Shown here piece by piece: positions 18,570 through 28,866 of a DNA stretch of 47,580 nt. The stretch covers positions 1 to 47,580 of the forward strand of contig CAYYNJ010000001.1 of NCBI GenBank assembly GCA_964472775.1, given 5' to 3'. Both the position numbers and the translations under genes were made by a program. This DNA comes from an uncultured Spirochaetaceae bacterium (GTDB lineage Bacteria; Spirochaetota; Spirochaetia; UBA9216). The number at the start of each line of letters is the position of its first letter. The first letter of the stretch is position 1. The notes under the pieces are model-generated. The model was given only the letters and a program-made list of their open reading frames with translations, had not been told where the DNA came from and ran no database searches.

Positions 18570-18700
18570 CTGCCCGACCCGGGCTGGCGGAAGGGGTAAC
18601 CAGGGTGAATCGAAGATTCTCGAGGATGAGCACCCGGGCTCAAAAAAAATCGCCCGGGCACCCATCCTCTACATTTTCGATTTACCCCGCTGGCCGGGGC
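18570..18700. repeat. palindromic intergenic repeat, copy A
   Basis: Hairpin core 18607-18683: GAATCGAAGATTCTCGAGGATGAGCACCCGGGCTCAAAAAAAATCGCCCGGGCACCCATCCTCTACATTTTCGATTT. It shares a 16-nt identical block and collinear similarity with copies at 22352-22512 and 28713-28866. Confidence 0.6.
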
Positions 18701-19813: not shown

Positions 19814-21107
19814 GGCGGCTCAGGAGAACCTCTTTCAGGTCTTCCAGGGTGCCGCCGATTTTTTCCGCCCGTTTCGGCAGATCCAGCAGCCCCTTCAGAC
19901 GTTCCGGCAGCTCCGGGGCCGACCCCAGGGCTTCGGCAACCATCTCCTGAAACTTTCCGGGGTGGGCGGTGGACAAGGTGATGATTTTGCGGCCGTCTCC
20001 GGCGGCATCCAAAAACCGGCGGGCTCCCAGATATCCCACGGCAGTATGGGGGTCCATCAGGTAGCCCGTCCGGTTCTTCACCTCCCTGATGGTGGCGATG
20101 GTCTCTTCGTCGGTAACCACCTGCTGGGCGATCATCCGGGACATCTTCTCTCTGTCTCCGTCAAAAATCGCCAAGAGCCGTTCAAAATTGGAAGGATCCC
20201 CCACATCCATGGCGTTGGAGGGTGTTTGAAGCGAAGCCCGGGGGGTAAAATCCCCCGAAATCAGATACTGGGGCACCACGTCGTTGCGGTTAGTCACCGC
20301 CAGAAACCCCGGAACCTTGAGTCCCCAAGTCCAGGCCAGGATGCCGGCGGTAAGGTTTCCGAAGTTGCCGCTGGGTACGGCGAAGTAAGAGTTATCCGCC
20401 CGGGCCCGGGTCCAGGCCCAAACGTAATAGAAGGATTGGGGCAGCAGCCGGCCCAGGTTGATGGAGTTTGCCGACGCCAGGGGCAGCCGGTTCCGTAATT
20501 CAGGATCCACGAAAGCCTGTTTCACCATCCTTTGACAATCGTCAAAAGATCCCTCCACCTCCAGGGCGATGACATTGTCTCCCAGGGTGGTGAGCTGCTT
20601 TTCCTGAAGAGGGCTCACCCGGCCGCTGGGATAGAGAATCACCACATCGATGTTGTCCCGTTTGTGGAAGGCCCGGGCCACCGCGCTGCCCGTATCACCG
20701 GAGGTGGCGGTCAGAATCACCGCCTTCCGGTCGCTCTCCTTGAGAAACTCCTCCATACAGGCGGCCAGAAAAGAGGCGCCAAAATCCTTAAAAGCGCAGG
20801 AAGGACCGTGGAAAAGCTCCAGCACCGAAATATCCTTATCCACCTTTGCCAGGGCCGGTTCGAAGGTGAAAGCCCGGCGGCAGATCGATTCCGCCTGTTC
20901 CGGCTTCAGTTCATCCTCAAGCAACGCCGCCGTGAGGGCCGAAGCCATCTCCACAAAAGGGGTGTCGCCGGAGAAACTTTCCATGAGGGCGGAAAGGTCG
21001 GGGGTCTTCAGGGGGTGGTAGAGCCCTCCGTCCGGGGCGAGGCCTTGGAAAACACCCTCCTGAAAGGTGACGAGATTCTTCGTGTTTCTGGTGCTGTAAA
21101 AAAGCAT
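19806..21107 (-). CDS. thrC: threonine synthase
   Basis: MLFYSTRN... start at 21107 with AGGAGGG 6 nt upstream. PLP-lysine region HGPSCAFKDFG. The ORF-track N-terminal extension to 21380 is Gly/Ala/Pro-rich and unlikely to be translated. Confidence 0.9.
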   Translation of the reverse strand: MLFYSTRNTKNLVTFQEGVFQGLAPDGGLYHPLKTPDLSALMESFSGDTPFVEMASALTAALLEDELKPEQAESICRRAFTFEPALAKVDKDISVLELFHGPSCAFKDFGASFLAACMEEFLKESDRKAVILTATSGDTGSAVARAFHKRDNIDVVILYPSGRVSPLQEKQLTTLGDNVIALEVEGSFDDCQRMVKQAFVDPELRNRLPLASANSINLGRLLPQSFYYVWAWTRARADNSYFAVPSGNFGNLTAGILAWTWGLKVPGFLAVTNRNDVVPQYLISGDFTPRASLQTPSNAMDVGDPSNFERLLAIFDGDREKMSRMIAQQVVTDEETIATIREVKNRTGYLMDPHTAVGYLGARRFLDAAGDGRKIITLSTAHPGKFQEMVAEALGSAPELPERLKGLLDLPKRAEKIGGTLEDLKEVLLSRHG

Positions 21108-21297
21108 GAGCCCTCCTGGATTGCAAATCCCCTTTTTTATACCGTAAATACAAGTTTTTTGGTAGGCCCGGGAGAAGGGGGGATCTTCTTTTTCCTTCAG
21201 GCGGGGGAGTCTCCCCCCCGCTTCAGCCCGGCGGTTCCCCGCCGCTGTTCCGGCTCCGTCCCCTCCGCCGGGCGGCGCGGGCCGGTCTTCCGCTTCC

Positions 21298-21352
21298 CCC
21301 TCGAAGACTTTCGGTTCAGCGCCTCCGGCGGAACCGAAAATATCCGCCGGTG
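21298..21352. repeat. degenerate partial copy of the palindromic repeat (copy D)
   Basis: CTCGAAGACTTTCGG...CCGGCGGAACCGAAAATATCCGCCGG resembles the CGAAGATTCTCGAGG...CCGGGCTCAAAAAAAATCGCCCGG core of copies A and B. Confidence 0.3.
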
Positions 21353-21360
21353 ACCGACAA

Positions 21361-21415
21361 AATTGTCCTGGCGGCCTCATTTTGACGAAGCTGAGGGTTA
21401 CGGTTTAAAAGGAAG
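21361..21415 (+). repeat. 55-nt direct repeat: isolated left arm of the hairpin element (copy C1)
   Basis: AATTGTCCTGGCGGCCTCATTTTGACGAAGCTGAGGGTTACGGTTTAAAAGGAAG matches 22348-22403 with 3 substitutions and 1 indel. Confidence 0.75.
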
Positions 21416-21466
21416 TTATGCACCCGCTTCGCAGGTAAAGAAGAAAACCTTTAAAAATTATATGTG

Positions 21467-21592
21467 GGCGCCTCAAAAAAACCAAATTGGGGTTTTTGAG
21501 GCGCCTTGGAGTTTATTTATTTCCTTTACAGGAAATAAATAAACATCCACTACATCTAAGGTAGACCTCTAAAAACGGCAGTTTTTAGAGGT
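21467..21592. other. three consecutive perfect-stem hairpins (terminator/insulator-like)
   Basis: H1 21467-21505 GGCGCCTCAAAAA...TTTTTGAGGCGCC. H2 21511-21545 GTTTATTTATTTCCT-TTAC-AGGAAATAAATAAAC. H3 21565-21592 ACCTCTAAAAAC-GGCA-GTTTTTAGAGGT. Confidence 0.5.
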
Positions 21593-21630
21593 TCCCATGT
21601 TTCATTCCCGTTAGGGTAAAAAGCAGATAC

Positions 21631-21698
21631 ACGTAACATTTGTAGAATACTATACGTAACTATTGATTTGTACGTGTATTTATTTTATATTGTTACGT
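21631..21698 (+). promoter_or_regulatory. cassette promoter with four ACGT-core boxes (candidate antitoxin operator)
   Basis: TTGATT (21663-21668), 17-nt spacer, TATATT (21686-21691). Boxes: ACGTAAC at 21631 and 21654, TACGTGTA at 21671, GTTACGT at 21692. Confidence 0.45.
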
Positions 21699-21708
21699 GG
21701 AGGGAGAT

Positions 21709-21951
21709 ATGAATAAGAAACTTACACTCAATATTGATGAATCAATTATTGATTTTGCAAAAACATATTCAAAAGTGAATAATCAATCGATTTCAAACAT
21801 CTTTGAAAAATATCTTATCAGATTAAAAGAAGAAACAAAGGAAATTAAAATTTCTGAAGAGGCAAGAGAATTATATGGAATAATCAGTAAAGATGAATTT
21901 CCCGATAAAAAAGAAATGAGAAAGAGATTTTATGAAAACAGTATTGATTGA
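21709..21951 (+). CDS. antitoxin (DUF6364/RHH-like, PIN-associated)
   Basis: MNKKLTLNIDESIIDFAKTYSKVNNQSISNIFEKYL resembles small antitoxins paired with PIN toxins. GGAGGGA lies 6 nt upstream of the ATG at 21709. It overlaps the toxin gene by 20 nt. Confidence 0.65.
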   Translation: MNKKLTLNIDESIIDFAKTYSKVNNQSISNIFEKYLIRLKEETKEIKISEEARELYGIISKDEFPDKKEMRKRFYENSID

Positions 21952-22342
21952 TTTAAATATTATTATTGATTTTCTGAATAAGCGAAATGATCATGAAGCA
22001 GCATTAGCTGTCTATGATAAATGTGTAAAAAAAGAAATAAAGGGGTATGTATGTTCCCATGAAATAACTACGTTATCGTATTTTTTAGAAAAACAAAAAT
22101 ATGAAAGAACAAAGAGAAATAAGATTATTTCCAACTTATTAGACAATTTAAGTGTGTTGACAGCACACGAAGAGATTTTAAGAAGGTCTTTATTCTCAGA
22201 TTTGGAAGATTATGAAGATGCTGTAATTGATGAATTGGCATTGAATGAAGAAATAGATTATATCGTTACAAGAAATTTGAAAGATTTTAAAAAATCCAGG
22301 AATAAAATTTATTCGGCCAGAGAAATACTGGATCTACTATAA
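21932..22342 (+). CDS. vapC: PIN-domain toxin (VapC-like ribonuclease)
   Basis: 136 aa. Acidic PIN residues in LIDLN (D7), SHEITT, DYEDAV and the C-terminal TRNLKDF. Confidence 0.8.
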   Translation: MKTVLIDLNIIIDFLNKRNDHEAALAVYDKCVKKEIKGYVCSHEITTLSYFLEKQKYERTKRNKIISNLLDNLSVLTAHEEILRRSLFSDLEDYEDAVIDELALNEEIDYIVTRNLKDFKKSRNKIYSAREILDLL

Positions 22343-22351
22343 GAAAGAATT

Positions 22352-22512
22352 GTCCTGGGGGCCTCATTTTGACGAAGCTGAGGGTTTCTGGTTTAAAACG
22401 AAGATGTAGAGGCGAAGGGGCGGCGCGATTTTCTTTGAGCGCCGCTGCTTCTCCTCGAGAATCTTCGTTTTACAGGGAAAAACCCTTCGTCAAAATGAGG
22501 CGGCCTGGGGAC
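22352..22512. repeat. 161-nt long-hairpin palindromic repeat element, full copy C2
   Basis: Stems: 22362-22377/22485-22500 (16 bp perfect), 22395-22405/22461-22471 (11 bp perfect), 22409-22417/22448-22456 (8 of 9), 22420-22426/22439-22445 (7 bp). Loop GATTTTCTTTGA. Confidence 0.8.
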
Positions 22513-22565
22513 CGAAAAGATAAAAGACTGGCCCCGCCCCCTCTTCCCTGTTACTATAAAGGGCC

Positions 22566-23774
22566 ATGAAGATCTTTTATTCCGCCGCCCTGGGGTTGGT
22601 CATACTTTTTCTTTTCTCTTGTGCCACCGGCGCCCCCTCCTCACGCCATCGGGAAGAGAATCCCCTGGAATCGGAGGATGTGGAAATCTCGCTGCCCCAC
22701 GCAACGGGGAGTCAGAGTTTTGAACCGGAAGGGCCTGATGAGGAGGAGGAAGAACCTCCACCGGCTTTGACCAAGGGGCTCTTGGTCGACACCGCCTTGG
22801 ATAGGCTCCCTCCCGGGCTCACTCCGGTTTTCAAGGATGACCAGCCCTGGGGCCTTTTTCATGATCTGGATAAAAACGGATACACCGATTACCTCCTGCT
22901 GGTTTTAGAGGAGGAAGTGGATCCGGGGCAGGCCCAATCCGGTTATCTTCAAGATAGCCTGAGGCTGTTCGATGAAGATTCTCCCTACCGCCCCTTCGGT
23001 TTGGTCATTTTTTATCAATATCCCGAGGATGTGATCAGCCGGTATCACATCTCCCTGGGCAAGAAACTGGTACTTCGGGATTTTGTCTTTCAAGAAATCC
23101 GTCTGGGCCGCGATTTCCCCTACACCGTGGTGGTTTCTTTTCAAACCTTGGAAGGCACCGAGGCGGAATGGGTCACCCTCCAGGGCCGGGGAATCAGCCG
23201 GTTATCCCTGGACTATACCTTGTCGAAGACCTCCCGGATCGGTGATGTCGACGGAGACGGATGGGTGGACATCCTTGTTTTTCAACAGGGCTTTGAGGAA
23301 GGCCGGGGTTATGAAACCTTTATCTCGTGGCTTCGTTGGAACGGTGAGGAGTACGCACCCCATAACCGAACCAACGTGATGCGGAACCTCCGGGATTTTT
23401 TCACCGCCGCCGAGGAAAAAATACCCGTTCTGGGGTGGGAACACTGTTTTGATCAGTGTCTCGAGGTTTCCCAGCTTTCGGAACTCCGTTCGGCGGGGAA
23501 GGCGGGGGAAGAGATCCTCTCCCGGTTTTTTCAGCCCTTGCCCGGGCAGGATGAGGTTCCGCCCCTTTACCGTATCGATCCGGCGGGGGTGGTTTTTCCC
23601 CGGGTTCTGGAGGATCCTTTTTCCTACAGCAGTCCCGTGCCTCTCCGTTTTTCGGTCATCGTGAAGGTACAAGACCGCGGCGGCACTTCCTTTTTTTATC
23701 AAGGGCTTTTAGGCATGTCGGATAATCCCTTCGGCGAAAATCAGTTTGCCTTTGCCATGCTGGAAGGCGATTAG
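22566..23774 (+). CDS. lipoprotein with an FG-GAP/VCBS-like motif, function unknown
   Basis: Signal peptide MKIFYSAALGLVILFLFSC with lipobox LFSC. GDVDGDGWVDILVF motif. Acidic linker after the Cys. Confidence 0.65.
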   Translation: MKIFYSAALGLVILFLFSCATGAPSSRHREENPLESEDVEISLPHATGSQSFEPEGPDEEEEEPPPALTKGLLVDTALDRLPPGLTPVFKDDQPWGLFHDLDKNGYTDYLLLVLEEEVDPGQAQSGYLQDSLRLFDEDSPYRPFGLVIFYQYPEDVISRYHISLGKKLVLRDFVFQEIRLGRDFPYTVVVSFQTLEGTEAEWVTLQGRGISRLSLDYTLSKTSRIGDVDGDGWVDILVFQQGFEEGRGYETFISWLRWNGEEYAPHNRTNVMRNLRDFFTAAEEKIPVLGWEHCFDQCLEVSQLSELRSAGKAGEEILSRFFQPLPGQDEVPPLYRIDPAGVVFPRVLEDPFSYSSPVPLRFSVIVKVQDRGGTSFFYQGLLGMSDNPFGENQFAFAMLEGD

Positions 23775-28712: not shown

Positions 28713-28866
28713 AAGGGTCCTTTTGGCGAAACGGCGCCCTCTGGTGAACGAATCCTTCCGAGGAAGACCCTCCGGGCTCAGGAAAAATCGCCCGGAGGGT
28801 CCTCCTCTGCGTCTTCGTTCGCCCCTGGAACGGCTCACCAAAAGGGCCCTCCTCTGCGTCTTCATT
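28713..28866. repeat. palindromic intergenic repeat, copy B, with a partial tandem duplication of its right arm
   Basis: Central hairpin GACCCTCCGGGC-TCAGGAAAAATC-GCCCGGAGGGTC. Arms GAACGAA/TTCGTTC and GGGTCCTTTTGG/CCAAAAGGGCCC. 20-nt repeat GGG(T/C)CCTCCTCTGCGTCTTC at 28797 and 28844. Confidence 0.65.

Follow-up and report, generated by a model that had tools for sequence, protein, structure and literature searches.

A probable integron toxin-antitoxin cassette, devoid of its attC site, within a dispersed hairpin element of an uncultured spirochaete

The 47,580-nucleotide (nt) stretch of DNA analyzed here (hereafter the window; contig CAYYNJ010000001.1 of assembly GCA_964472775.1, from an uncultured Spirochaetaceae bacterium) carries, between thrC and a lipoprotein gene, a single AT-rich segment that encodes a toxin-antitoxin (TA) pair and is bracketed by direct repeats derived from one arm of a long hairpin. 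With a probability of roughly two in three, this segment is an integron TA cassette that was inserted outside an integron, within a hairpin repeat, and that has since lost its attC site. Its source would be the AT-rich cassette arrays of other Spirochaetia. The window contains no recombinase, so that the integrase would have acted in trans.

The cassette, its sister copies and its two junctions

The insert (21416-22347, 932 nt) has a G+C content of 29.3% (25-28% in 200-nt windows) versus 56% for the whole window, in whose 47.6 kb it is the only AT-rich island. The direct repeats on its two sides (55 and 56 nt) differ by three substitutions and one indel, i.e., at 4/55 positions (7%), and share an identical core of 25 nt that occurs nowhere else in the window and was matched in 0 of 100 shuffles. 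Searches with Pfam detected no integrase, transposase or tyrosine recombinase among about 29 substantial open reading frames (ORFs) of the window. A sequence-only reading of this DNA had described the AT-rich segment, its direct repeats, a 161-nt hairpin, two overlapping TA ORFs, their promoter and a set of leader hairpins, and all of these lie where it placed them. It had also regarded the segment as foreign, self-contained and mobilized in trans, and this view is supported. Delivery of the cassette by a plasmid or a phage was considered and is without support, the best plasmid matches being below 32% identity and phage matches being nil.

Seven sister loci of the TA module were compared (L031, L032-34, L035, L036, L037/L088 and L038), with identities of 82-89% for nt and 88-95% for amino acids (aa). 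DNA homology to these copies runs from the promoter (about 21631-21663) to just beyond the toxin stop (22344-22351). The sister loci are AT-rich (G+C 29.5-37%) and consist of long same-strand arrays in which small ORFs and other TA pairs (ParE, VapB-PIN, Gp49/HTH, BrnA) are divided by imperfect palindromes of 115-140 nt, which start with (R)YATAAC (the R'' box) and end with CGTCGTTATRC, including the R' box GTTATRC (site pattern GCATAAC...CGTCGTTATGC). A profile built from eight of these palindromes (type-1 attC profile) matches L031 6 times within 5.7 kb and L088 at least 10 times within 20 kb, always in the same orientation, and the arrays hold from 4 to at least 10 attC sites each. In the fold of the bottom strand of these sites, the R box is paired, a short spacer stays unpaired, the L box has a bulged base and the center varies. 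Furthermore, at 14/15 array junctions all bases of R' (7/7) are complementary to the R'' of the attC that follows (on average 6.9/7, versus 5.6/7 with the R'' of the abutting site), which is the signature of circular cassettes inserted by G↓TT exchange (the arrow marks the point of exchange). That exchange in GTTRRRY takes place after the G and before the TT is established for integrons (Hall et al., as cited in PMC4889954), and spirochaetes are described (PMC4889954, PMC8352920) as hosts of chromosomal integrons with taxon-specific attC sites and with TA modules as typical cargo. The integron-like logic that had been perceived in the segment alone is supported.

The left end of the insert coincides to the base with the boundary of such a cassette. 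The insert begins with TTATGCACCCGCTTCGC... directly behind a host G (...GGAAG↓TTATGC), and the base next to this G is also where homology to the cassettes of L031, L032 and L037 sets in: the sisters read ...CGTCG↓TTATGCACCCGCT(T/C)CGCGGGTATAG and the window reads ...TTTAAAAGGAAG↓TTATGCACCCGCTTCGCAGGTAAAG. Were the breakpoint random within a cassette of about 1 kb, so exact a boundary would be expected by chance in roughly 1 of 1000 cases. The junction shows no microhomology (host ...GGAAG versus sister attC ...CGTCG). Recognizable attC cores had been thought to be absent from the segment, a claim that has to be corrected, since TTATGC, the remainder of an R' box, stands directly after the host G, at the boundary of the sister cassettes. 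This start predicts an own R'' of the sequence GCATAAC, which is the R'' of the sister TA cassettes. The uninterrupted host target is kept in the right repeat and the bases that follow it (22395-22412, AAAACGAAG↓ATGTAGAGG, with ATGTAG after the cleavage point) and is a 5'-GWT-3' site, in which G↓AT agrees with GWT and with cleavage after G. Integron integrases were shown to insert cassettes with high frequency at minimal genomic 'attG' sites of this kind; the target is used in double-stranded form, a single cleavage takes place and replication resolves the product (Loot et al., bioRxiv 10.1101/2022.09.11.507474). A search of all loci compared for further junctions between an arm of the hairpin and TTAT, or for further type-1 cassette frames, returned only those of the window.

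The right end is a junction of another kind. Homology to the sisters ends about 8 nt before the expected R'' GCATAAC: after the stop codon the sisters continue as ...AAGA(A/G)...AATTTGCAT(A/G)AC, where R'' starts, and the window continues as TAAGAAAGAATT↓GTCCTGG. The window keeps the pre-R'' tail of the sisters, AAGAATT, and switches within AATT to the linker of the host element (in the left copy, GACAAAATTGTCC), by way of a 4-5-nt microhomology between the cassette tail and the start of the right repeat. No attC was found in the window, either with the type-1 profile (nhmmer, E<=10) or by a crude structural scan for R'' and R'. As judged from these alignments, the right junction would be a microhomology join that removed the attC of the cassette. 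That cassettes inserted in a genome may be domesticated when slippage deletes their folded attC was anticipated by Loot et al. (bioRxiv 10.1101/2022.09.11.507474). The insert is thus a derivative of an integron cassette and is no longer mobile.

Three further observations concern the sister loci. In L035 (1548-2628), a 129-aa fragment from the C-terminus of a Xer/IntI-type tyrosine recombinase, to which an N-terminal piece in another ORF may belong, is situated immediately upstream of the array's first attC and points the same way as the cassettes. This fragment scores equally as XerA/C/D and as IntI and is not assignable to either. It may be a decayed integron integrase in the 'inverted' orientation, an arrangement reported for spirochaete integrons. 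The closest TA module (L038 1-1350; 95% aa and 89% nt identity) has neither the 5' TTATGC frame nor an intact attC; a mutated R'' (GCATGAC) is all that follows the toxin gene, and unrelated DNA with an ATPase-like ORF comes next. L038 is a second, independent stranded copy, so that this module has been stranded more than once. Its flanks were compared with the hairpin element and are not significantly related to it, since 35/500 shuffles score equally. Additionally, several type-1 cassettes with unrelated cargo (L031, L032, L037/L088) share an extension after the R' core, TTATGC-ACCCGCTTCGCGGGTATAGA, which forms a small GC stem with a TTCG loop (e.g., L031 3588-3615 and L037 2453-2480), suggesting that the functional recombination site or a terminator reaches past the canonical attC in type-1 integrons.

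The host hairpin element and the route of insertion

The host sequence at both junctions belongs to a composite element of roughly 287 nt, which according to the family alignment consists of a left module, a small hairpin, a linker and a big L-C-R hairpin and has inverted termini (CAGCAATTCCAGATTTG / CAAAATTGGAATTGCTG). The intact hairpin (22352-22512) folds as DNA at -53.9 kcal/mol (z = -9.9), and 0/200 shuffles fold as well. It is not unique to the TA locus: partial copies of the element lie at two further sites of the window, which makes three loci, and a metagenome scan for its best-conserved 20-mer gave 49 loci, of which about 35 lie on separate contigs of sample Ga0334882. The proposal of a genome-wide hairpin repeat, made from the window alone, is supported by these copies. 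Many non-coding copies, a conserved structure and inverted termini are the features of dispersed repeats similar to miniature inverted-repeat transposable elements (MITEs) or to REP sequences. It had further been expected that other copies of the hairpin would bracket cargo in the same way, and this expectation failed, as coding cargo is present in none of about 45 other copies examined; in a related genome, the copies sit after housekeeping genes with no cassettes between them. No Rfam family reached its gathering score in the window, and 21100-22600 gave sub-threshold noise only. An 18-mer of the hairpin arm found 27 single matches in 185,579 representative genomes, in unrelated taxa, at about the number expected by chance and none of them paired, a scan that is uninformative because the arm sequence evolves fast.

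In the coordinates of the element profile, the left partial copy stops at 183 (the alignment of 21337-21415 spans positions 102-183), the right copy begins at 128 and the cassette lies at 183/184. The small hairpin of the left copy is truncated at its 5' side and meets the DNA upstream of thrC at about 21303-21307. The idea that copies of the element are cut at one precise point, 183/184, was rejected, since truncated starts scatter over 172-189 with differing junction sequences. What lies at 183/184 is the border between modules rather than a site defined to the nucleotide.

At the same place in relatives, the element occurs without the cassette. L030 (about 81% nt identity, with the same rlmN-thrC-lipoprotein-murA synteny) has no TA genes and contains the homologous hairpin in 300-nt tandem units, L089 has the right arm of the hairpin at the same place, and L029 retains only a remnant of it in a 131-nt spacer. 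In addition, 13/51 hairpin pairs are compensatory between the window and L030. These four observations together indicate that the hairpin is native to the locus and older than the cassette. A site without the cassette, which the sequence-only reading had proposed to look for, is thus present in L029 and L030 (about 79-81% nt identity). On the other side, an independent assembly from another sample (L028, 99.2% identical) has the identical right junction, which makes an assembly chimera unlikely.

A two-step history could account for this arrangement. In the first step, a trans-acting integron integrase would recombine the R' of the attC of a circular cassette (G↓TTATGC) with an attG-type site (AAAACGAAG↓ATGTAG) in the stem of a resident copy of the element, between thrC and the lipoprotein gene, and would thereby make the left junction. 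In the second step, the cassette's own attC (about 135 nt, with the expected R'' GCATAAC) would be lost by microhomology-mediated slippage or template switching, joining the cassette tail (..AAGAATT) to the element linker (..AAAATTGTCC) 55 nt upstream of the target point. The junction of the first step can be read in the sequence; its catalysis and the whole of the second step are what we infer. As to the starting point, we tentatively favor two tandem copies of the element at the locus: the cassette would enter the first copy at 183/184, and a deletion by slippage between the cassette tail and the linker of copy 2 would remove the attC together with the rest of copy 1. In line with this route, tandem arrays are present at this locus in L030, internal microhomology deletions are usual for the element (a derivative at pyrG is described below), and the repeats diverge by 7%, versus 0.8% between the two strains sharing the insertion. 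That the repeat might represent two separate copies of the element had been named beforehand as a finding that would speak against an integrated circular cassette; in view of the L030 arrays it is a live explanation of the repeats. The outcome would be an intact hairpin beside the lipoprotein promoter, its arm present as a 55/56-nt direct repeat, and a TA cassette without attC. Such a cassette would be stranded: excision by an integrase would be impossible, and rare homologous recombination between the repeats would be the sole route of removal.

Several points weigh against insertion by an integron integrase followed by loss of attC. A canonical attC x attG insertion is precise and retains attC, whereas here attC is missing and 55 nt are repeated, so that at least one extra unobserved event is needed. 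Neither an integron integrase nor an attC array is present in the window, which leaves the enzyme putative, and no intact integron integrase was found adjoining the sister arrays, the 20 kb of L088 holding only more cassettes and insertion sequence (IS) elements. The GWT match is weak when taken alone, as such triplets are ubiquitous. Moreover, the left junction is present only in the window contig, L028 confirming the right junction alone, and the 4/55 mismatches between the repeats fit an old event as well as pre-existing copies and do not tell the sub-models apart.

Alternative histories differ in what they make of the two junctions. In a one-step version of the integrase route, which we consider rather unlikely, a polymerase stalled at attC during insertion into a single-copy element would switch template at AATT(T)G, re-copy 55 nt and skip the attC. 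Both repeats and their flanks do add up exactly to a single element, truncated at its 5' side, and a duplication of 55 nt, nothing of a second copy being left over, and the right junction does show microhomology; the single cleavage and replicative resolution of attC x attG recombination and the slippage-prone nature of attC hairpins (Loot et al., bioRxiv 10.1101/2022.09.11.507474) also suit it. However, a product of this kind has not been described, the repeats diverge more than the strains that share the insertion, and the tandem copies at the orthologous L030 site provide a simpler deletion route. It is improbable that no integrase was involved, i.e., that after transformation both ends were joined by illegitimate or microhomology recombination, perhaps where the fragile hairpin had broken; G↓TTATGC would then be a coincidence or the end of a donor fragment that happened to stop at the cassette boundary. 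Long palindromes are break-prone, the right junction is clearly a microhomology join, and the L038 module shows that rearrangements without an integrase occur. Nevertheless, the left breakpoint falls on the exact boundary nucleotide, according to a rule validated in 14/15 sister junctions, the host side is a GWT site and the left junction lacks microhomology.

The exact bracketing of the insert by 55/56-nt direct repeats had led to a model in which the repeats are attL and attR, a circular TA element bearing the 55-nt arm having integrated conservatively at the hairpin through a hairpin-specific recombinase supplied in trans. The dispersed hairpin could offer many targets for such an enzyme, and no recombinase is encoded in cis. 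This model is very improbable and its 55-nt att core has to be given up: the 55-nt sequence is present in 0/7 sister cassette loci (BLAST of 21200-22600), the left boundary is the integron G↓TT crossover to the base, the right boundary is a microhomology of 4-5 nt in the 3' tail, where an attC is expected and has been replaced, so that the two junctions differ in kind, and none of about 45 other copies of the element carries coding cargo. Hardly credible is the notion that the locus is a degraded integron array, with the big hairpins as its attC sites and the TA pair as a cassette, i.e., an attC-site cluster with no integron integrase (CALIN). The succession of an ORF pair and a long imperfect palindrome, and the tandem palindromes of L030, are superficially array-like, but the hairpin is part of a dispersed 287-nt element, copies of which follow housekeeping genes and have no cassettes between them, it lacks AAC...GTT closing boxes in the window, and the type-1 attC profile has no match at E<=10 in the window, L028-L030 or L038. 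The sequence GTCGGTTATAG in L030, examined as a potential attC R' box, corresponds instead, in the family alignment, to the following tandem copy's left module.

A final possibility goes beyond insertion by an integron integrase at an attG-type site and gives the hairpin element an active part in it, as an attC/attI mimic that integron integrases recognize structurally and that would serve as a preferred landing pad taking cassettes out of integrons. The likeness of AAAACGAAG↓AT to L'-spacer-R' ends such as that of L032 (TAAAACGGTCG↓TT) and the large number of element copies starting nearby are compatible with this view and do not demonstrate it, and we consider it highly unlikely. If it were true, cargo next to a long hairpin would represent an early stage of a gene gaining an attC-like site, which would bear on the unsolved origin of cassettes and attC sites.

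The element shows other behaviors besides. Nested mini-hairpins of 54-157 nt (e.g., ...GGAAATTCAAAAATCTCTTATTTTTGAATTTCC...) occur in many copies at two recurrent positions, about 199 of the profile (L044, L061, L064, L069, L072, L073, L075, L081, L084) and about 127 (L051, L059), suggesting that a second small palindromic element or a subfamily targets the hairpin element. At the pyrG site, relatives have two or three tandem copies (L029 8858-9211 and L030 12215-12801), whereas the window has a collapsed one in which GAAGACGCAGAGGAGG appears twice, around an L arm, and which is apparently a derivative of a tandem array by internal deletion at a microhomology. In Ga0334882 (L045-L086), a sigma70-like promoter stands at a fixed distance behind the right end of the element, in flanks that are otherwise unrelated: in 12 of about 35 genuine right ends the best -35/-10 pair, with a 17-nt spacer, starts exactly 17 nt past the element (e.g., TTGACG-17-TATAAT in L047). 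Either the element contains a degenerate promoter that points outward, or positions upstream of promoters are where it is targeted or retained. In the window (22512-22565), the hairpin is followed by CTGGCC-N18-TACTAT and, 8 nt later, by the ATG of the lipoprotein gene, the mRNA of which may be leaderless. Given the fixed promoter distance in Ga0334882, the presence of an intact hairpin next to the lipoprotein promoter may matter.

Genes and features of the locus

The coordinates of the cassette, of its repeats and of the copies of the element in the window are collected in Table 1.

Table 1. Features of the TA locus and copies of the hairpin element in the window.
Feature	Coordinates	Strand	Basis and remarks
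Second element copy (core C + R, profile 172-268)	18590..18686	-	nhmmer E = 2.5e-22; directly after rlmN stop; orthologue L029 1-72
Small hairpin ('sh') of resident MITE-like element	21295..21353	+	Inverted repeat; homologous to sh module of L030 and Ga0334882 family
Left direct repeat	21361..21415	+	Element linker end and L arm of big hairpin; profile positions 128-183, ends exactly at 183
Cassette 5' frame	21416..21461	+	TTATGC (attC R' core remainder after G↓TT), then conserved ACCCGCTTCGC(A/G)GGTA
Three near-perfect, terminator-like leader hairpins, 136 nt in total	21462..21597	+	Inverted repeats; 21467-21505, 21511-21544, 21565-21592
TA promoter/operator region	21598..21708	+	-35/-10 hexamers, TACGT boxes, ribosome binding site
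Antitoxin gene, 80 aa, DUF6364	21709..21951	+	Pfam PF19891, E = 6.7e-18
PIN-domain toxin gene, 136 aa	21932..22342	+	Pfam PIN_3, E = 4.3e-18
Cassette 3' tail and right junction	22343..22351	+	GAAAGAATT(G), homologous to sisters' ...AAGAATTTGCAT(A/G)AC; overlaps first bases of right repeat
Right direct repeat	22348..22403	+	L arm of intact hairpin; profile positions 128-183
Intact L-C-R hairpin, 161 nt	22352..22512	+	C stem-loop about 22404-22455, R arm about 22456-22512; profile E = 1e-25
Third, diverged element copy (profile 177-249)	28747..28819	-	nhmmer E = 5e-5 to 5.5e-4; directly after pyrG stop

The two TA ORFs overlap by 20 nt, and the module has the attributes of type II TA systems, i.e., a VapC-like PIN toxin of the RNase type with acidic residues, a small overlapping antitoxin gene upstream and a common predicted promoter. 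In an alignment with 13 homologues, the acidic residues D7, E44, D96/D100 and D118 of the toxin are conserved. The toxin has 202 homologues, the top one 95% identical; the nearest ones (85-95% aa identity) are mostly unnamed metagenomic sequences, and those with a name come from Spirochaetia and from one Bacteroidales metagenome-assembled genome. The antitoxin is weakly RelB-like (NCBIfam RelB antitoxin, 0.0098, under the cut-off). Upstream of the pair, a promoter-like site (TTGATT-17-TATATT, with the -35 hexamer at 21663 and the -10 hexamer ending at 21691) is accompanied by TACGT boxes at 21631, 21653, 21671 and 21694, which are conserved in all sister copies, and by a ribosome binding site (GGAGGG) at 21699. 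The promoter is probably autoregulated. The TA genes look intact, and the pair is thus probably active as an addiction or stress module. The first of the leader hairpins (GGGCGCCTCAAAAA...TTTTTGAGGCGCC) has T-rich runs on either side and resembles a bidirectional terminator. By BLAST, the leader hairpins gave only self-matches, being present in no sister cassette and in no second copy in the compared sequences. Their identification as a displaced attC or as a known repeat was discarded, as they have neither a match to the attC profile nor a further copy.

The surrounding genes of the window are housekeeping genes (aspS, gatAB, tal, rlmN, thrC, murA, pyrG, phoU/BR and eno), and named relatives are Spirochaetales, with Sediminispirochaeta at 84%. 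The start of thrC lies at 21107 on the minus strand, and that of the lipoprotein gene, which encodes an LFSC lipobox, at 22566 on the plus strand. The lipoprotein (22566-23774, with weak FG-GAP-like matches) is 73% identical to its L029 orthologue, whereas the enolase from the same L029 contig is at 99%, so that the lipoprotein is fast-evolving and probably surface-exposed. No exact-protein matches to the toxin or the lipoprotein of the window are on record.

Comparison with known systems

As cargo, the module resembles the TA cassettes of sedentary integrons, such as the Vibrio superintegron, which are type II TA modules with their own promoter (PMC4889954). Its array-borne sisters lie, like those of the superintegron, in long arrays with highly similar attC sites and alongside other TA pairs (PMC4889954). 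The TA copy of the window, unlike the superintegron TA cassettes, is outside an array, and stabilization of an array by it is therefore impossible. The locus shows that an addiction module can become fixed between housekeeping genes. The pairing of DUF6364 with PIN_3 is not known among the classically studied integron TA modules. With respect to the lost attC, the closest parallel is provided by fused or attC-less cassettes, for which hairpin-promoted replication slippage is proposed (PMC4670013), as for the window. Those fusions lie inside class 1 arrays and join neighboring cassettes (PMC4670013), whereas here the site is genomic and the arm of the host hairpin has been duplicated or a second copy of it retained.

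The host element resembles, by description, the REP/BIME, ERIC, Correia and RUP-type repeats, which are likewise short, structured and non-coding, with inverted termini and many intergenic copies, often after stop codons. It also forms tandem arrays, contains nested insertions and acts as a landing site for mobile DNA, as these repeats do; some of them are preferred targets of particular IS elements. The element differs from them in being composite and about 287 nt long, in its lack of an Rfam match and in the fixed 17-nt distance to promoter-like hexamers in one genome, and no sequence relation to them is claimed. The locus joins two hairpin-based dynamics, those of integron cassettes and those of MITE-like repeats.

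Isolated cassettes in regions without intI are known as single attC sites lacking integron integrases (SALINs) or, when attC sites are clustered, as CALINs (IntegronFinder definitions, as given in PMC4889954; Loot et al.). The window shares this isolation with them. Both classes, however, need a detectable attC, whereas the cassette of the window has none and was recognized through its 5' boundary and its sister cassettes, so that tools based on attC would miss the locus. It stands one step beyond a SALIN, its attC having been lost as predicted for 'domestication'. Stranded cassettes that escape attC-based tools could lead to under-counting of this route, and the matching of cassette 5' frames to array-borne sisters is a way to find them.

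The nearest relatives of the locus are the attG insertions. Experiments have only recently shown that integrases insert cassettes at ordinary genomic sites; the natural footprint of such insertion has been counted through SALINs. An earlier case is the aadB cassette at a secondary site of RSF1010 (Recchia and Hall, 1995, as cited in Loot et al. and in PMC4889954). The attG insertions described by Loot et al. (bioRxiv 10.1101/2022.09.11.507474) share with the window a lone cassette outside an integron with no integrase nearby, the G↓TT crossover, a minimal GWT target (here G↓AT) and a promoter that is carried or close by, from which the cassette can be expressed. They are precise and keep their attC, whereas in the window attC is missing and 55 nt of the target are found on both sides; the window further differs in its target within the stem of a dispersed hairpin, its spirochaete host, its TA cargo and its putative integrase. 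The locus is thus a natural example of a recently characterized integrase route, with an unusual second junction, and not a new class of mobile element.

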